From the NCBI GenBank assembly GCA_964432415.1, contig CAYSNW010000008.1:15726-79725 (forward strand): a stretch of 64,000 bases of DNA. The letters run 5' to 3'. Position 1 is the stretch's first letter, and every line of letters starts with the position of its first letter. This DNA is from an uncultured Caulobacteraceae bacterium. Its GTDB lineage: Bacteria > Pseudomonadota > Alphaproteobacteria > Caulobacterales > Caulobacteraceae. The notes beneath the pieces were generated by a model. That model worked only from the letters and a program-made list of their open reading frames with translations. It was not told the origin of the DNA and searched no databases. The translations under genes and the position numbers were made by a program. Shown piece after piece: positions 1 through 19,654 of this stretch.

Positions 1-691
1 CGGTCCACCAGGCCAGGGGCGTGAGCAACAGCGCGCTCAAGCCGAACCAGATTAGCATCCTCACCTGCCAGGGCGAAAGCAGGGGCCGGGGCGGCTCCAG
101 CACGACCCACTTGCCGTCCGGGCGATGAAATCCGGCGAGGAACGGCGGAAATACCAGATTGTCGCGCAGGATCATCATCCCCGGGGAGCCGGCGTCCAGC
201 ACCTCGGGCGGAATCTGGGCACGGCCGGCGCCCGACCGGCGCATGATGATGGTCTCGCTGGAACGCCGCGCGGTGACCGTCACCTGCATGTGAGAGTCGA
301 AGTGCTTGCGATGCATTTCGGCCCCGGGGCCCGCACGCATGCGGAAGTCGGGGACCACGGCAGCGCGGACCCGGTCGACGGGCGCGCCCAGTTCCCGGGC
401 CAGGCTGGCCTCCAGAATGTCCTCGAGGCCGCGCTCACCGGCCGGGGGGGGCGGTCCCAGGTCTGGCGCCTGGTCCTGGACCCGCACCACCAGCCGCTTG
501 CCGTCGCGCGCGGTGACCGCCTCGCCCCTGAGCGCGCGGGCAGCCTCGGTGACCGAGAAGCCCCGGGGCGGCGGATCGGGAAGGGTCAGCACCACGGCCA
601 GGTTGATCACCTGGGCGGCCACGACGCTGAGCAGGGCCAGTCCCAGCACCTGCAGGAAGATCGGCGCCCCGCCGAGCGACGGGCGCTTCAT
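1..691 (-). CDS. sensor histidine kinase, N-terminal portion (continues beyond window start); partner of the adjacent OmpR-type regulator
   Basis: Minus-strand translation from the ATG at 689-691 reads MKRPSLGGAPIFLQVLGLALLSVVAAQVINLAVVL... (membrane anchor) and stays open to position 1. The ATG overlaps the regulator stop codon (ATGA). It is absent from the ORF track because it runs off the window edge. Confidence 0.5.
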   Translation of the reverse strand, partial: MKRPSLGGAPIFLQVLGLALLSVVAAQVINLAVVLTLPDPPPRGFSVTEAARALRGEAVTARDGKRLVVRVQDQAPDLGPPPPAGERGLEDILEASLARELGAPVDRVRAAVVPDFRMRAGPGAEMHRKHFDSHMQVTVTARRSSETIIMRRSGAGRAQIPPEVLDAGSPGMMILRDNLVFPPFLAGFHRPDGKWVVLEPPRPLLSPWQVRMLIWFGLSALLLTPLAWWT

Positions 692-1413
692 CGGCGCACC
701 ACGGAGGCGGCGAACATGTAGCCCTCGCCGCGCACGGTGCGGATGACGTCCCGGCCGGTGCCGTCATCCAGCTTGCGGCGCAGGCGGCTGATCTGCACGT
801 CGATGGCGCGGTCGAAGGCGTCGCTCATCGGCCCGCGCGCCAGGTCCAGCAGCTGATCGCGGGTCAGCACCCGCTCGGGCCGCTCCACGAAGATGCGCAG
901 CAGGTTGAACTCGCCGGAAGACAGGTTGACCACCACGCCGGTGGGGGAGGTCAGCTCGCGACGGACCAGGTCGAGGCGCCAGCCGTCGAACTCCACAGAC
1001 GGGCCCAGGGTCGCGGGGCCAGACGGCTCACGGCGGCGGCGCAGCACCGCCTTGACCCGCGCGAGCAGCTCACGCGGATTGCAGGGCTTGGGCAGGTAGT
1101 CGTCGGCGCCCAGCTCCAGGCCGATGATCCGGTCGGTGTCCTCGCCCATAGCGCTCAGCATGATCACCGGCGGGCCTGCGGCCCCGGATAACCGCTTACA
1201 GATCGACAGACCGTCCTCGCCCGGCAGCATCAGGTCCAGCACCACCAGATCCGGCGCGCCCTCGCGCAGGGCCGCGTCCATGCCGCGCGCGTCCGCCGCC
1301 GTATCCACCACATAGCCGTGGCGGCTGAGGAACTCGCTCAGCACGTCGCGGATGCCCGGATCGTCGTCGACGACCAGGATTCGGGCGGAGGGGGTCTCGG
1401 CGACGACGTTCAT
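688..1413 (-). CDS. OmpR-family two-component response regulator (receiver plus winged-helix domain)
   Basis: 241 aa. Receiver motifs ILVVDDD...DLVVLDLMLPGEDG and a C-terminal winged-helix (...RLRRKLDD...IRTVRGEGY). High GC3 codon bias. Confidence 0.9.
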   Translation of the reverse strand: MNVVAETPSARILVVDDDPGIRDVLSEFLSRHGYVVDTAADARGMDAALREGAPDLVVLDLMLPGEDGLSICKRLSGAAGPPVIMLSAMGEDTDRIIGLELGADDYLPKPCNPRELLARVKAVLRRRREPSGPATLGPSVEFDGWRLDLVRRELTSPTGVVVNLSSGEFNLLRIFVERPERVLTRDQLLDLARGPMSDAFDRAIDVQISRLRRKLDDGTGRDVIRTVRGEGYMFAASVVRR

Positions 1414-1591
1414 GGCTTCAGAGTCACACGGCTGAATCGCAACAGGATTTCATCTCTGCAATATTGCCCGCGGCCAATTGTGGGCAGGATGTTTCAAGCC
1501 GGACACGATCGGACAAACCGTTGCAATGTCCAGCGGGCAAACCAGCGTCGAACGGGATTCGAACCCGACGCATCGAGAACACAAAAAAGGG
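1414..1591. promoter_or_regulatory. divergent intergenic region between the OmpR-type regulator and the EF-hand/Met-rich protein gene; contains the palindrome GCAATATTGC (about 1458-1467) and a second TGCAAT half-site (about 1522-1527); AAGGG RBS before 1592
   Basis: Palindrome and half-site read directly from the sequence. Regulatory role is inferred from the divergent arrangement only. Confidence 0.3.
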
Positions 1592-2338
1592 ATGACGATG
1601 AACACCAGGATCTGGATCGCGCCGCTGGCCCTCGGGGCGGGCCTGGCGCTGGCGCTCTCCGCCGCCGCGGTGGCCCAGGACGGCAAGAAGGAAGTCCACA
1701 GCGAAGTGATCGTGATGAGCGGCGACGGCCATGGCGAACCCGGCGGCCCGGGCATGCACATGCGCATGATGGGCGGCCCGCACCATCCGCCCCTGGCCGA
1801 GATGGACACCAATAAGGACGGCGTGGTCTCCAAGGAGGAGTTCATGGCCTTCCATGCGGCCATGTACGACAAGATGGCGGCCGAACACGGCGGCTCGCTG
1901 AAGGTGCCGCCTCCGCCGGTCAAGCACGACATCAAGATCATCGTCGACGGCAAGGAGCTGAAGCCCGGCGAAATGCCCCCCGGCATGGAGATGATGGAAG
2001 GCGGCGACGGCCCCGGCATGCGCACCTTCACCCTGCGCCGCGGCGAAGGCGGCGAGGGCGGCGACCACAACGTCATGATCATGCGTCACGGCCCCGGCGG
2101 GCCGGACGGTCCGGGCGAGCACATGAAGATGGGCGAACCCATGCGCTTCGAGGCCATGGACAAGAACCATGACGGGAAGATCTCGTTCGAGGAGTTCGCT
2201 GGCCCGATGCGCCAGGCCTTCGAGCACCTGGACGCCAATCATGATGGGTCTTTGTCCAAGGAAGAGCTGGCCAAGGCCCACATGAACGTGCGTGTCGAGA
2301 CCCGCGTGCGCGACGAGAAGCACGACGACAAGCACTAG
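1592..2338 (+). CDS. periplasmic EF-hand calcium-binding protein with Met/His-rich (copper-type) motifs
   Basis: In-frame ATG at 1592 (MTMNTRIWIAPLALGAGLALALSAAAVAQ, signal peptide) inside ORF 1478..2338. Three canonical 12-residue EF loops (DTNKDGVVSKEE, DKNHDGKISFEE, DANHDGSLSKEE). Met/His-rich stretches MHMRMMGGPHHPP, MPPGMEMMEGG, HNVMIMRHG, EHMKMGEPM. Confidence 0.8.
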   Translation: MTMNTRIWIAPLALGAGLALALSAAAVAQDGKKEVHSEVIVMSGDGHGEPGGPGMHMRMMGGPHHPPLAEMDTNKDGVVSKEEFMAFHAAMYDKMAAEHGGSLKVPPPPVKHDIKIIVDGKELKPGEMPPGMEMMEGGDGPGMRTFTLRRGEGGEGGDHNVMIMRHGPGGPDGPGEHMKMGEPMRFEAMDKNHDGKISFEEFAGPMRQAFEHLDANHDGSLSKEELAKAHMNVRVETRVRDEKHDDKH

Positions 2339-2406: not shown

Positions 2407-3324
2407 TCAGGCCAGGAGCGCCGTCAGCGCGTTGGAGGCCAGTTCGATGGCCTGGCGCGCCGGGGCGTAGATCGGCGCCAGGTGCAGGGAGGCGTGGCTC
2501 AGGCCGGGTTGGTCGAGCCGGGTCGTGGGCACGCCCGCGGCGGCGAGTTGACCAGCGAAGCGCTCCACGTCCGGGTGCACGGGGTTCAGGCCGCTGCCGG
2601 AGACCAGCACCACCGGCGGCAGTTCCGCGACCTGCGATGCGGACAGGGCGAAGGACGCCGGATCACAGGCCTTGCCGAGGCTGTGGCGGATGTAGGCCAC
2701 CGCCGCGCGACCAACGATGCGGGCGTCACGGAGCGGCCGGGCGCGCCAGTCCCGGTCGGCGATGGTCAGCAGCGGATAGAACAGCAGAAGGCCCTTCGCC
2801 GTGCGCCCTTCGGCGCGGAGCTGCAGCGCCGTCCAGGCCGCCATGTGACCGCCGGCGGAATCGCCGCCCAGGCCCGTGCGCGCGGGGTCGAATCCCAGCT
2901 CCGTGGCGTGGTCGAAGGCCCAGCGGGCGGAGGCGAGGGCGTCCTCGTGCTGGGCCGGGAAGGGCGCCTCGGGGGCAAGGCGGTAGCCCACCGACAGGAT
3001 GCGCACGCCCGCGCGCGCCGACAGCCGCCGGCACAGGGCATCGTGGCTGGTCAGGCTGGAGACCACGAAGCCCCCGCCGTGGAAATAGATCAGACCCTGT
3101 CCGCTCTGGTCCGCGTGGGCGGGCGTGTAGAGGCGCGCGCGCAGGGGACCCGCGCCGCCGTCGACCTCCAGTTCGTGAATGAAACAGTCGTCGCGTGCGC
3201 CCAGGTGCAGCAGCGGCAGGAAACCGTCGATCGCCGCCCGCGTCGCGATCAGGCCGTACTCGTCCAGGCGCCGGCGGCGTGGGCTCTGCATCCAGCCAAG
3301 ATAGGCGCCCCGTATCTGATGCAA
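2407..3324 (-). CDS. alpha/beta hydrolase fold-3 esterase/lipase (HSL family)
   Basis: HGGGF oxyanion motif and GDSAGG nucleophile elbow. 305-aa ORF; the true start may be the internal Met at about 3288. Confidence 0.8.
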   Translation of the reverse strand: MHQIRGAYLGWMQSPRRRRLDEYGLIATRAAIDGFLPLLHLGARDDCFIHELEVDGGAGPLRARLYTPAHADQSGQGLIYFHGGGFVVSSLTSHDALCRRLSARAGVRILSVGYRLAPEAPFPAQHEDALASARWAFDHATELGFDPARTGLGGDSAGGHMAAWTALQLRAEGRTAKGLLLFYPLLTIADRDWRARPLRDARIVGRAAVAYIRHSLGKACDPASFALSASQVAELPPVVLVSGSGLNPVHPDVERFAGQLAAAGVPTTRLDQPGLSHASLHLAPIYAPARQAIELASNALTALLA

Positions 3325-3531: not shown

Positions 3532-4659
3532 ATGCGCGCATCAATGAGCCTCCCGCCGTTCCTTCGTCAGCGACCGGTCCGTGAGATCGCCGGCCTGACC
3601 GTCGTCCTGTGGGCGGTGGTCTATGCCGTGTTCATGCTTCCCAGCGGCGCCGCCGGCAAATGGGAGCTGTGGCGCTTTCTGGTCAACGCCAAGGTCGCCG
3701 CCTTCGGGCCCTTCATCTCCCTGATGTTCTACCCGGCCATGGTCACCACCCGGGCCTGGACGCTCGGCCGGCGCATCGCCCTGTTCGGCCTGCTGATCTT
3801 CCTGGCCGCGGCGGTGCATTCGCTGATCGACGCCCGGATCATGATCGACGACCGCAAGATCTACATGCCCGACGATCACAGCTGGCAGTTCTGGCCGGTC
3901 GTCTACCAGGGCTTCCTGATCTATTTCTGGCTCTATGGCCTGTACGTGGCCGCCATCGGCCTGCTCCTGTCGCGCTACGCCTCCCAGGAGCGTGACCGTC
4001 AGCTGACCGAGGCCCGGGCCGCCGCCCACCAGGCCCAGCTCGAGGCCCTGCGCTTCCAGCTGAACCCGCACTTCCTGTTCAATACGCTCAACGCCATCTC
4101 CTCGCTGATCGTCACCGGGCGCAACGCCGACGCCGAGTCCATGACCGCCAAGCTGTCGGACTTCCTGCGCTCGTCGCTGGCGTCCGATCCGCACAGTGTC
4201 ATCCCGCTGGCCGACGAGGTCGCGGCCGTGCGCGCCTATCTCGATATCGAGACCGTCCGTTTCGGCGAGCGCATGGCGGTGGAGGTGGTCTGCCCCGCAT
4301 CCCTGGCGGACGCCCTGGCGCCCAGTTTCGTGCTCCAGCCCCTGGTCGAGAACGCGGTCAAGTACGCGGTCGCCCCGGCGCGGCGGCGCGTGAAGATTTC
4401 GGTCAAGGCCCAATCCCGTGACAATGACCTGATCCTGGTCGTCGAGGACGACGGCGATGGCCACCCACCGTCCTCGACCGCGGTCGGGGTCGGTGTGGGT
4501 CTCGAGAACGTGCGCCGCCGCCTGCAGGTGCTGTACGGCGAGCGCGGCTCGATCGAGGTCGGAAAACTACCGGGGGGCGGCTTTCGCGCCGTCCTGAAAC
4601 TGCCGCTGGAACGGGTCGGTCCCACCGCCCAGATAGTAAAGATCAGGAGTGTCGCGTGA
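3532..4659 (+). CDS. LytS/YehU-family sensor histidine kinase (membrane-embedded 5TM sensor plus His_kinase/HATPase), paralog 1
   Basis: LNPHFLFNTLNAI phospho-acceptor motif (PF06580-like), G-box VGVGLENVRRRL, N-terminal TM helices. The stop overlaps the regulator GTG start (GTGA). Confidence 0.85.
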   Translation: MRASMSLPPFLRQRPVREIAGLTVVLWAVVYAVFMLPSGAAGKWELWRFLVNAKVAAFGPFISLMFYPAMVTTRAWTLGRRIALFGLLIFLAAAVHSLIDARIMIDDRKIYMPDDHSWQFWPVVYQGFLIYFWLYGLYVAAIGLLLSRYASQERDRQLTEARAAAHQAQLEALRFQLNPHFLFNTLNAISSLIVTGRNADAESMTAKLSDFLRSSLASDPHSVIPLADEVAAVRAYLDIETVRFGERMAVEVVCPASLADALAPSFVLQPLVENAVKYAVAPARRRVKISVKAQSRDNDLILVVEDDGDGHPPSSTAVGVGVGLENVRRRLQVLYGERGSIEVGKLPGGGFRAVLKLPLERVGPTAQIVKIRSVA

Positions 4660-5423
4660 CCCTCAGAGTCTTGATTGTCGACGATGAGCCCCTGGCGCTC
4701 GAACGATTGAAGGTCGCCTTCGGCCAGATCGACGGCGCCGTGATCGTGGGCGAGGCCAAGGACGGAGAGGAGGCCGCCCAGCGTATCCGGGCCCTTGCCC
4801 CGGACCTGGTGTTGCTGGACGTCCAGATGCCGGCGCTCGACGGCCTGCAACTGGCTGCCGCCCTGGTGGGCGAGGACCGGCCTGAGGTCGTCTTCGTCAC
4901 CGCGTTCCAGCACTTCGCCGCCGAGGCCTTTGAGGTCGAGGCCGCTGACTACCTGCTCAAGCCCGTGCGTTTCGACCGGCTGAAGCAGGCGGTGGAGCGG
5001 GCGCGGCGCCGGCGTCAGGCGCGCCTGGCCATGTCCAGCCTGAAGCCCGCGGCCAACGACAGCAGCCCCTACGACTCAGAAATCTGGGCTCCGACCAACC
5101 GGGGCCTGGTTCGCGTGCCGGTCGAGCAGATCGTGTGGATCGAGGCGGCCGGCGACTACGCCATGCTGCACACCGAGGCGCGAAGCTACATGATCCGCGC
5201 CACCATGACCGCGCTGGAGCAGAAGCTCGACCCGACCAAGCTGGCGCGGGTGCACCGCTCGGCCTTCGTGCGCCTGTCCTCGGTCCAGACCGTCAAGCGG
5301 CTCGGCAAGGGGCTGATCTCGCTGATTCTGCCGGACGGCGCGGAGGTCCATGTCGGCCCGAACTACACCCAGTCGGTGCTCACGGCCTTGAAGTCGGCTC
5401 CGCAACAGGCGGCGAACGCCTGA
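4656..5423 (+). CDS. LytTR-family response regulator (receiver plus LytTR DNA-binding domain)
   Basis: MTLRVLIVDDEPLALERL...LLDVQMPALDG receiver. C-terminal LytTR-like region (VPVEQIVWIEAAGDYAMLHT...). Confidence 0.9.
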   Translation: MTLRVLIVDDEPLALERLKVAFGQIDGAVIVGEAKDGEEAAQRIRALAPDLVLLDVQMPALDGLQLAAALVGEDRPEVVFVTAFQHFAAEAFEVEAADYLLKPVRFDRLKQAVERARRRRQARLAMSSLKPAANDSSPYDSEIWAPTNRGLVRVPVEQIVWIEAAGDYAMLHTEARSYMIRATMTALEQKLDPTKLARVHRSAFVRLSSVQTVKRLGKGLISLILPDGAEVHVGPNYTQSVLTALKSAPQQAANA

Positions 5424-5450
5424 GGGCGATAGACGGACAGGCGCCACAAC

Positions 5451-6578
5451 ATGCGGCTATCGATGAACCTGCCGCCCTACCTTCGTCAGCGTGGCGTTTA
5501 CGAGATCGTCTTCGGGACCCTGGCCCTGTGGGCGGTGGTCTACGCCGTGTTCATGCTTCCCAGCGGCGCCGCCGGGAAGTGGGCCCCATGGCGTTTCCTG
5601 GTCAACTTCAAGATCGCCGCCTGCGGACCGCTGATTTCGACGATGTTCTATCCGGCGTTGCTGGCGACCCGGACCTGGAGCTTCGTCCGGCGGTGCGCCC
5701 TGATGGGGATTCTGGTCGCGGTCGCCACCGGACTCCACTCCCTGATCGACGCCAGGATCGTGGTCGACGCCCGCGGTGTCTACGTGCCCGACGACCACAC
5801 CTGGCGCTTCTGGCCCATCGTCTTCGACAGCCTGATGATCTACACTTGGCTCTACGGGATGTATGTCGCGGTCCTTGCCCTGATGCTGTCGCGCTACGCG
5901 TCGCAGGAGCGTGACCGCCAACTCGCGGAGGCGCGCGCGGCCACCCACCAGGCCCAGCTCGAGGCCCTGCGCTTCCAGCTCAATCCGCATTTCCTGTTCA
6001 ACGCCCTCAACGCCATCTCCTGTCTGATCGTCACAGGCCGCAACGCCGACGCGGAGGCGATGATCGGCAAGCTGTCGGATTTCCTGCGCTCGTCCCTGGC
6101 GTCGGAGCCGCACAGCGTCATTCCCCTGGCTGAGGAGGTCGCTGCGGTCCGCGCCTATCTCGACATCGAGACCGTGCGTTTCGGCGAACGCATGGAGGTG
6201 GAGGTGATCTGTCCGGGGCCCCTGGCCGACGCCCTGGCGCCCAGCTTCGTGCTGCAGCCACTGGTCGAAAACGCCGTCAAATACGCCGTGGCGCCCGCGC
6301 GACGCCGGGTGAAGATCCTGGTCAAGGCCTCGACGCGGGAGAACGATCTGATCCTGGTGGTCGAGGATGACGGTGACGGCCATCCGCCGTCTTCGACCGC
6401 CATCGGCGTCGGGGTGGGGCTCGAGAACGTGCGTCGGCGCCTGCAGGTGCTCTATGGCGAGCGCGGCTCGATCGAGGTCGGCAAGCTCCCCGGAGGTGGA
6501 TTCCGGGCGGTTCTGAAATTCCCGCTGGAGCGGGTCGGCCCCGTAGCCGAGATCGTGCAGATCAGCAGCGTGGCGTGA
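5451..6578 (+). CDS. LytS/YehU-family sensor histidine kinase, paralog 2 (about 80% aa identity to paralog 1, same length of 375 aa)
   Basis: Colinear with 3532..4659 across the whole length, including identical H-box and G-box segments. DNA is about 85-90% identical over long stretches. Confidence 0.85.
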   Translation: MRLSMNLPPYLRQRGVYEIVFGTLALWAVVYAVFMLPSGAAGKWAPWRFLVNFKIAACGPLISTMFYPALLATRTWSFVRRCALMGILVAVATGLHSLIDARIVVDARGVYVPDDHTWRFWPIVFDSLMIYTWLYGMYVAVLALMLSRYASQERDRQLAEARAATHQAQLEALRFQLNPHFLFNALNAISCLIVTGRNADAEAMIGKLSDFLRSSLASEPHSVIPLAEEVAAVRAYLDIETVRFGERMEVEVICPGPLADALAPSFVLQPLVENAVKYAVAPARRRVKILVKASTRENDLILVVEDDGDGHPPSSTAIGVGVGLENVRRRLQVLYGERGSIEVGKLPGGGFRAVLKFPLERVGPVAEIVQISSVA

Positions 6579-6606: not shown

Positions 6607-7203
6607 TCAGCCGGCCTTGGACAGTCCCGGATCCGGGGCCGCGTCGCGGAACTTCTCGAGCTGTTTGGCCATGGCCTTCGCCGCCTGACGCGTGGGTTCG
6701 TCGCCGCGTGCGGCCAGGGCCATCAACTCGGCGGCCGAAGCCAGCAGGGCCTGGGAGGCGTCGGCGCCCTGGGTGTAACGCTCGTGCAGGCGCGAGCGGG
6801 CCTGGCGCAGGGCGTGCTCGGTCTTGGCCTGACGCAGGGCGAAGCGGATCTGGCGGGTCATCAGCCGCCAGTTGATCGGCTTGACCGCAAAGCCGGTGGC
6901 GCCGAGCTCGAAGGCGCGATCCAGGGCTGAGGTGTCGTCGCGGGCGGTGACCACCAGGACGGGGAGGAAGCGCCAGCGCTCGTCGGCGCGGATGGCCTCG
7001 AGCACCTCGAAGCCGTCCATCATCGGCATGGCCAGGTCCAGGATCACCAGGTCGACAGGATTGCCGCGCAGGTGCTCCAGCGCATCCATGCCGTCGCAGG
7101 CGAGGGCGAGATGCACGGGCTCGTCGGCGAGCTGCGCGCGCGCATGATCGCGCAGCAGTTCGTCATCGTCGGCCAGCAGCAGGTTCACGGTCGTCTTGGG
7201 CAT
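6607..7203 (-). CDS. single-domain response regulator (CheY-like receiver) with a C-terminal helical extension
   Basis: LLLADDDELLRDH...DLVILDLAMPMMDG receiver motifs and no output domain. Convergent with HK paralog 2. Confidence 0.8.
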   Translation of the reverse strand: MPKTTVNLLLADDDELLRDHARAQLADEPVHLALACDGMDALEHLRGNPVDLVILDLAMPMMDGFEVLEAIRADERWRFLPVLVVTARDDTSALDRAFELGATGFAVKPINWRLMTRQIRFALRQAKTEHALRQARSRLHERYTQGADASQALLASAAELMALAARGDEPTRQAAKAMAKQLEKFRDAAPDPGLSKAG

Positions 7204-19564: not shown

Positions 19565-19654
19565 TGGCGGACGGGGTGGGATTCGAACCCACGGTAGGCT
19601 CTCACCTACGGCGGTTTTCAAGACCGCTGCCTTAAACCACTCGGCCACCCGTCC
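19565..19654 (-). tRNA. tRNA-Ser (anticodon UGA), 90 nt with a long variable arm and encoded CCA
   Basis: Reverse complement reads GGACGGGTGGCCGAGTGGTTTAAGGCAGCGGTCTTGAAAACCGCCGTAGGTGAGAGCCTACCGTGGGTTCGAATCCCACCCCGTCCGCCA. Anticodon loop CTTGAAA, T-arm GGTTCGAATCC, and a 7-bp acceptor stem pairing GGACGGG with CCCGTCC. Confidence 0.85.

Follow-up and report, generated by a model that had tools for sequence, protein, structure and literature searches.

What does a bacterium sense with a two-component system whose genes stand back to back with the gene of a secreted protein carrying EF-hands, and what is that protein for? The question is raised by one end of a 64-kb stretch of DNA from an uncultured Caulobacteraceae bacterium (contig CAYSNW010000008.1), where an operon for an OmpR-family response regulator and a histidine kinase is transcribed away from the gene of such a protein. 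The whole stretch is called the window below, and it is the window to which the shuffle, tile and matrix-scan statistics refer. A sequence-only reading of this DNA had taken the locus for a candidate metal-sensing module. We find that the three-gene unit is conserved across Caulobacterales and is uncharacterised, and we lean, by a little, toward reading it as an autoregulated envelope-sensing system of the OmpR/EnvZ type, whose dedicated and divergently encoded output would be a secreted Ca2+-binding EF-hand protein.

When one genome per species was scanned, 80 loci proved to encode a relative of the EF-hand protein, and in 70 of them this gene is directly and divergently adjoined by a regulator (58–82% identity) and a kinase whose sensor domain is homologous (28–45% identity). 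The ten exceptions are eight loci from outside Caulobacterales that match on the EF-hands only, one that lies at a contig edge, and one in a metagenome-assembled genome of the Caulobacteraceae. The same divergent layout was seen in four contexts that were read individually (L005, L007, L009 and L147). The last of these is the closest relative found, with a regulator that is 86% identical, and the order of its neighborhood, namely a LytTR system, an Abhydrolase_3 gene, the EF-hand gene, the regulator, the kinase, LigD and Ku, matches that of the window. The EF-hand protein has diverged to 27–47% identity, yet the adjacency has been kept. This synteny, together with the conserved boxes in the shared intergenic region described below, bears out the earlier suggestion that the three genes form a functional unit.

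The sequence-only reading had placed the three genes correctly, and the divergent arrangement of the secreted EF-hand gene is confirmed by the listing of open reading frames (ORFs) and by direct reading. The start of the kinase gene, at 691, overlaps the stop of the regulator gene (ATGA), and the kinase gene exits the window at the left edge. A correction is needed on the other side, where the EF-hand gene had been started at 1592, leaving 178 bp between the divergent genes: the start in the database is 1598 (MNTRIW...), which also suits the GGG ribosome-binding site at 1589–1591 better, and the intergenic region therefore measures 184 bp.

The assignment of the two signaling genes to the OmpR/EnvZ type stood up well. 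The regulator contains the Response_reg (PF00072, 99.9 bits) and Trans_reg_C (PF00486, 78 bits) domains, both over their cut-offs, which is the architecture of the OmpR/PhoB family, and the best of 95 NCBIfam models is OmpR itself (NF007005, an equivalog model), although the score of 253.3 bits falls short of its cut-off, 331. It is 48% identical to OmpR of E. coli K-12 (from NC_000913.3), and its recognition helix, RAIDVQISRLRR, is nearly the same as that of the E. coli protein, RSIDVQISRLRR. The 230 kinase residues that lie inside the window gave no Pfam or NCBIfam match. The full kinase is P0193, of 489 residues, which is 100% identical to the window translation over residues 1–230 and contains HAMP, HisKA and HATPase_c domains; its best model is EnvZ (NF007004, also an equivalog), with 192.6 bits against a cut-off of 415 and over residues 221–488 only, that is, from HAMP to the ATPase. 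The architecture of the kinase is thus EnvZ-like (transmembrane segment, periplasmic domain, transmembrane segment, HAMP, HisKA, HATPase_c), and its periplasmic sensor domain is lineage-specific. The sensor domain is also rare, as an exhaustive search among 1.84 billion proteins gave 213 cluster representatives at E ≤ 1e-3.

The control region shared by the two transcription units holds the evidence for how they might be regulated. We aligned the 200 nt beside the regulator start codon in the 70 loci, and in 68 of these a box with the consensus cgTcATTTCAgcgyTGAAACAaT was found, mostly 25 or 33 nt from that start codon. The core of the conserved element is TTTCA-N4-TG(A/C)AA(C/T), and in Brevundimonas a second element, cTGAAACAC-N4-GCAAG, follows 21 bp on from the box. 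A box matrix was built from the other genomes only, with the window excluded, and run along the 64 kb on both strands (128 kb of strand); its top two matches both fall inside the 184-bp region, at 1445 (22.1 bits) and, on the minus strand, at 1486 (9.2 bits), and they correspond to boxes 1 and 2 of Table 1. The promoter of E. coli ompC, read from the genome, carries TTTAC-N4-TGAAAC with a second TGAAACA 21 bp downstream, the established C1 and C2 sites of OmpR, and these spacings equal those of the Caulobacterales and Brevundimonas consensus.

Box 1, which on the regulator strand reads TTGCA-N4-TGAAAT, is found upstream of the regulator ATG at a distance of 33 nt. In L148, L149 and L099, where no EF-hand gene is divergent from the regulator orthologue, that orthologue has GTTTCA-N4-TGAAAT about 30 nt before its ATG. 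Because the box stays with the regulator despite a different upstream neighbor, its role is most simply autoregulatory, and we regard box 1 as a probable autoregulatory operator. The EF-hand gene may be driven from boxes 2 and 3, box 3 being a probable activator site for it. The box 3 sequence GGAMAAACCnnTGCAAY is kept in the window, L147, L010, L007, L016 and L023, and it is here that the second TGCAAT half-site noticed in the sequence-only reading falls, one of two copies in the intergenic region out of six on both strands of the 64 kb.

That reading had also offered a perfect 10-bp palindrome, GCAATATTGC, as the possible regulator box. The palindrome is present, but as an operator it does not hold: by chance, 14.6% of shuffled versions of the region contain a perfect 10-bp palindrome, as do 33% of the 184-bp tiles taken from the window, this one is absent in L147 and L010, and only its left arm, TGCAAT, lies in a conserved half-site, the family consensus keeping just TGAAACA(A/T)T. 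Conspicuous as it is, the palindrome is not the operator.

On the other side of the control region lies the gene of a protein whose three canonical EF-hand loops, as read earlier, are exact matches to DxNxDGxxxxxE and are supported by Pfam (EF-hand_5, 75.8 bits against a cut-off of 25.9, E = 1e-21; EF-hand_7, 60.7 bits against a cut-off of 30). These are canonical 12-residue loops (ligand positions 1, 3, 5 and 12, Gly in position 6), and the hands are of the paired kind. Direct reading likewise gives a putative signal peptide of the Sec type that ends AVA/QD, and the three Met/His clusters that had been quoted are present. What had been missed is a degenerate fourth EF-hand: two pairs of EF-hands, four in all, are usual in the family, and in the window the second has decayed to DKMAAEHGGSLKV. 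A protein search with the EF-hand protein yielded about 70 relatives, and an alignment of sixteen full-length ones gives the order of the family as signal peptide, short beta-like segment, EF-hand pair, variable Gly/Pro/His/Met linker, second EF-hand pair and basic C-terminal strand. The ligand residues D188, D192, G193, E199, D212, G217, E223, G75 and E81 are invariant in this alignment, and D70 and D74 nearly so. AlphaFold2, run with the same alignment, is confident for residues 62–105 and 182–230 only; the linker, which bears the Met/His clusters, has a predicted local distance difference test score below 50. Searched against the PDB, the model found no match at E ≤ 0.001, and its fold and sequence matches are weak and of a generic EF-hand kind. 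In Pfam the protein shows neither an LTXXQ (PF07813) domain nor a domain of the CusF/CopC/PcoE type.

The composition of the linker is a different matter from the loops. The mature protein of the window contains 10.0% Met and 7.7% His, with seven MxM/MxxM/MM motifs, and its clade mates L010 and L023 are also rich in both (Met 8.7–8.9%, His 9.6–13.1%). Across 65 relatives Met ranges from 1.3 to 8.9% (median 4.4%) and His from 0.9 to 13.1% (median 4.75%), and the only residue that stays high is Gly (7.3–23.4%, median 18.5%). The EF-hand protein of L147, the closest relative found, is 35% identical, and most of its Met clusters are gone. As the ligands are invariant while Met and His vary, we conclude that the conserved chemistry is that of the EF-hand and that richness in Met and His belongs to one lineage.

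The kinase family keeps further periplasmic company. A metagenome scan with a 6-sequence alignment of the sensor domain turned up more distant systems, with regulators 57–62% identical and no EF-hand gene. In four of these, the genes of the system are directly preceded by that of a periplasmic protein with an extreme Met/His/Gly-rich tail (L102:~2660-3177, L119:2659-3195, L123:2608-3153 and L144:2571-3173; an example of such a tail is HGMMGSMHGMGMGHMGMMGHMGQMGGMGG), and a Pfam scan of the proteins from L119, L123 and L144 found in each the LTXXQ domain of CpxP, Spy and ZraP, at 44–55 bits. In two Caulobacter-type loci with regulators 72–76% identical, a different four-EF-hand protein is encoded directly after the orthologous kinase (L099:~5400-6116 and L149:7354-8118); the one in L099 has a lipoprotein-like signal, and the context of both consists of HrpB, an amino-acid permease, Lactamase_B, the regulator and the kinase. 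In 53 Brevundimonas-type loci (L011-L089; e.g. L009:6915-8045) the EF-hand gene is followed, after about 200–300 nt, by a Tricorn_C1/Peptidase_S41 gene of the same orientation, and in 14 loci a second S41 peptidase follows the kinase; the clade of the window has a convergent Abhydrolase_3 gene in place of the S41 gene. The repeated occurrence of periplasmic proteins (S41, EF-hand, LTXXQ) beside this kinase family therefore suggests an envelope function.

The reading to which we lean would work as follows. The phosphorylated regulator would bind box 1, which lies about 33 nt from the regulator ATG, and so control the operon of regulator and kinase; by binding boxes 2 and 3 it would switch on the EF-hand gene. 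Once exported, the EF-hand protein would bind Ca2+ at its three intact loops, and its Gly-rich linker, here also rich in Met and His, is predicted to be flexible. The signal may be an envelope or divalent-cation condition rather than Cu or Ag specifically, and, by analogy with cpxP-cpxRA and zraP-zraSR, the EF-hand protein may feed back on the kinase.

Several points weigh against this proposal. The regulator and the kinase both score under the equivalog cut-offs, and they are therefore relatives and not orthologues of OmpR and EnvZ by the NCBI criterion. OmpR-family regulators usually bind direct repeats, unlike box 1, which is nearly an inverted repeat (TTTCA-N4-TGAAA), and it is possible that another transcription factor acts there. 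A consensus scan of 1350–2450 for a sigma-70 promoter found none. An orthologous pair is present at L148, in Phenylobacterium, where the vicinity holds no EF-hand gene, which means that the EF-hand protein is not obligatory for such a kinase. Co-divergence, on the other side, speaks for the proposal. The kinase sensor and the EF-hand protein each change at about double the rate of the regulator, and their distances correlate when the regulator is controlled for (partial r = 0.56, permutation p = 0.001, partial Mantel test); we count this as weak support, because residual phylogeny missed by the slow regulator could give the same result.

The alternative that survives best is that the EF-hand protein is mainly a periplasmic co-sensor, which would dock on the periplasmic domain of the kinase and switch the kinase on or off according to its loading with Ca2+ or another cation, thus taking the role of CpxP or ZraP on an EF-hand scaffold. 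In that case, control of the EF-hand gene by the system would serve feedback and not be the main output. We consider this conceivable, though doubtful. CpxP is degraded by DegP, and the S41 peptidases that adjoin the module in Brevundimonas recall this. In zraP-zraSR, too, the gene of a periplasmic accessory protein is divergent from its two-component system, ZraR being a sigma-54 activator and not of the OmpR type. The cpxP gene is divergent from cpxRA, and CpxP is a top member of the regulon, inhibits the kinase CpxA and is removed by a protease (PMC6737893). Our locus shares with both systems the secreted-protein gene that is divergent from a regulator-kinase operon across a shared control region, and LTXXQ-family proteins with Met/His/Gly-rich tails precede its distant orthologues. 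The fast and covarying evolution of the kinase sensor and the EF-hand protein also suits a co-sensor, but here again the covariation may be phylogenetic, and L148 possesses the system without any EF-hand gene. The protein of the window moreover differs from CpxP and ZraP in being an EF-hand protein with no LTXXQ domain, and any feedback role would be ascribed to it by analogy. We also considered a docking motif shared between the EF-hand linker (VMIMRHGPGGPD) and the LTXXQ tail of L123 (IMIMRRHGPGGPD) and rejected it, since BLASTP gave E = 6.8 and no better; we treat the likeness as compositional only.

A broader form of the same thought, which we offer as speculation and hold to be rather improbable, is that there exists an Alphaproteobacterial family of EnvZ-like kinases with interchangeable periplasmic partners, of the EF-hand type in Caulobacterales and of the LTXXQ type elsewhere, and that in this locus the EF-hand partner reports the periplasmic status of Ca2+ or hard cations directly to the kinase. 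If true, a bacterial two-component system would here be served by a sensor in the style of calmodulin.

The view taken in the sequence-only reading, that the locus senses Cu/Ag (or Zn) in the manner of CusRS, CopRS and PcoRS and has as its target a periplasmic protein that binds metal by virtue of MxM, MxxM and HH motifs, now seems unlikely to us. Those systems do resemble ours in having an OmpR-family regulator, a periplasm-sensing kinase and a neighboring periplasmic protein with Met/His clusters, and the high Met and His content of the window protein and its clade relatives, as well as the extreme tails of the LTXXQ proteins beside distant orthologues, would fit such a role. However, against the heavy-metal regulator model TIGR01387 (cztR_silR_copR) the regulator scores 149.6 bits, below the cut-off of 279.2, and against the kinase model TIGR01386 (cztS_silS_copS) P0193 scores 149.5 bits, below the cut-off of 292.55, with its orthologues scoring likewise (160.1 bits for that of L005, also under the cut-off). 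As the heavy-metal cut-offs are not reached and the OmpR and EnvZ models score higher, we place the pair outside the CusRS/CopRS group. The boxes are OmpR-like, and the ORF listing, Pfam and the context of L147 reveal no efflux pump, multicopper oxidase or CopC/CusF-type domain at the locus. The protein itself is free of cysteine, and we do not assign it to the class of Cu(I)/Ag(I) Met-motif proteins, as its motifs, while present in the window, are conserved neither across the 65 relatives nor in L147, the closest relative found; it is Gly, not Met or His, that stays high. The Cu-sensing reading is corrected accordingly.

Least probable of all, and in our estimate very unlikely, is that the genes are neighbors by descent only, with the EF-hand gene separately regulated and the boxes serving autoregulation of the regulator-kinase operon or another factor: box 1 does precede regulator orthologues whatever their upstream neighbor, and most loci come from one order, so that the synteny could be inherited, but the adjacency persists through the divergence of the EF-hand protein, more conserved half-sites lie on the EF-hand side of box 1 (boxes 2 and 3, and TGAAACAC-N4-GCAAG in Brevundimonas), and other EF-hand proteins have been recruited beside the same kind of kinase in another arrangement (L099 and L149).

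Comparison with known systems places the proposed OmpR/EnvZ-type system more closely. EnvZ/OmpR of E. coli shares with it the regulator-kinase operon with overlapping genes, the closely similar regulator and recognition helix, a cytoplasmic kinase part that matches the EnvZ model best, and the TTTAC/TTTCA-N4-TGAAAC half-site layout of ompC C1 with the TGAAACA repeat at 21 bp. The differences are that both proteins here remain under the equivalog cut-offs (253 versus 331 and 193 versus 415 bits), that the periplasmic domain of the kinase is unrelated and longer, and that no porin target is evident at the locus. We know of no divergent periplasmic partner gene for envZ/ompR.

Among EF-hand proteins, lanmodulin is the best though weak match both in structure (Foldseek, E = 0.1) and among the NCBIfam models (NF053806, 31.4 bits). 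Two adjacent loops of it align without gaps to residues 185–224 of the window protein, so that the inter-loop spacing of 12 residues is the same, the neighboring loops of the window protein at 2159–2266 (residues 188–223) being 12 residues apart. A Pro at loop position 2 is typical of lanmodulin. The window protein has none there (its loops begin DTNKDG, DKNHDG and DANHDG), its score lies far under the cut-off of 135, and its long linker is absent from lanmodulin, and we reject membership in that family. EfhP of P. aeruginosa is an EF-hand protein implicated in Ca2+-dependent regulation (PMC9132961, PMC11559002), and CaBP of Caulobacter vibrioides, from the same order as the window protein, is described as a Sec-exported periplasmic protein of 133 residues with three EF-hands that is coupled to the extracytoplasmic function sigma factor SigV (PMC13171946). 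Both resemble the window protein in their EF-hands and in the link to Ca2+-dependent regulation, and they differ from it as far as their titles and abstracts describe them, in which no pairing with a two-component system is reported and no Gly/Pro/His/Met linker is mentioned. UzcRS of Caulobacter, which responds to U, Zn and Cu, is described with a UzcR motif CATTAC-N6-TTAA and with genes, CCNA_02842 and CCNA_02845, that are not adjacent (PMC8963506). The overlapping genes and the TTTCA-N4-TGAAAC boxes set our system apart from it by motif and by gene layout, and we reject an identity of the two.

The literature that we searched contained no characterised case of a two-component system that has a periplasmic EF-hand protein as its partner, and no mention of EF-hands together with Brevundimonas, Asticcacaulis or Phenylobacterium. 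How bacteria sense extracellular or periplasmic calcium is poorly understood, and the few EF-hand sensors studied, such as EfhP and CaBP, have no tie to a two-component system in the papers that we found. In about 70 genomes, by contrast, a regulator, probable boxes, a kinase and a putative Ca2+-binding partner are brought together in a compact unit within 3 kb. Its cultured carriers include Brevundimonas sp. Root608 and Root1279, B. basaltis, B. denitrificans, Asticcacaulis benevestitus and A. solisilvae, and the compactness of the unit together with these carriers makes the calcium question directly testable.

Table 1. Features of the divergent locus, in window coordinates.
Feature	Position	Strand	Remarks
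Histidine-kinase gene, 5′ part (first transmembrane segment, periplasmic sensor domain of ~170 residues, second transmembrane segment)	1–691	−	remainder beyond window
OmpR-family response regulator, 241 residues	688–1413	−	stop overlaps kinase start (ATGA)
Shared divergent control region, 184 bp	1414–1597	.	GC 54% versus 69% in whole window
Box 1 (candidate), ATTTCA-TCTC-TGCAATA	1447–1463	+	best matrix match in window
Palindrome GCAATATTGC	1458–1467	.	overlaps right half-site of box 1; not itself conserved
Box 2 (candidate), GTGTCC-GGCT-TGAAACA (minus-strand reading)	1490–1506	−	second-best matrix match in window; conserved in clade of window
Box 3 (candidate), GGACAAACCGTTGCAAT	1511–1527	+	half-sites 10–11 bp apart; includes second TGCAAT (1522–1527)
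Secreted EF-hand protein gene, 246 residues	1598–2338	+	database protein P0001 identical; Pfam EF-hand families
Signal peptide, Sec-type, ending AVA/QD	1598–1675	+	putative; read directly from sequence
Met/His cluster 1	1754–1786	+	direct reading
EF1 loop	1805–1840	+	exact DxNxDGxxxxxE
Degenerate EF2, DKMAAEHGGSLKV	1868–1906	+	family alignment
Met cluster	1973–2005	+	direct reading
Conserved DHNVMIMRHGPGGPDG	2063–2116	+	within EF-hand gene
Met/His cluster	2117–2143	+	direct reading
EF3 loop	2159–2194	+	exact DxNxDGxxxxxE
EF4 loop	2231–2266	+	exact DxNxDGxxxxxE

Some further observations concern the surroundings of the unit. On a short Logan contig (L004:4-333) an EF-hand gene 100% identical to that of the window adjoins a regulator fragment of 74.5% identity, a mismatch that could reflect recombination between strains or a chimeric assembly. 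In the clade of the window, LigD follows the kinase in L005:913-3567, L147:7210-9921, L010 and L020, with Ku alongside in L005 and L147, and their counterparts here probably lie just past the left edge of the window. A terminator scan of 1350–2450 found none, and Rfam gave no element at the locus, its sole match in the 64 kb being a tRNA gene at 19568–19654 on the minus strand.

Beyond the EF-hand gene, the window contains a tandem at 3532–6578 made up of a LytS-type kinase (3532–4659), a LytTR response regulator (4656–5423) and a second LytS-type kinase (5451–6578). It is followed by an ORF of 198 residues on the minus strand (6607–7203), with an N-terminus that looks receiver-like by eye and a C-terminal half that resembles no recognised output domain; this ORF sits between the second LytS-type kinase and an ORF resembling AMP-binding enzymes, both labels having been given by eye. 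The two LytS-type kinases are 80% identical to each other, and as L147 carries a single kinase at the same place, a recent duplication is suggested.

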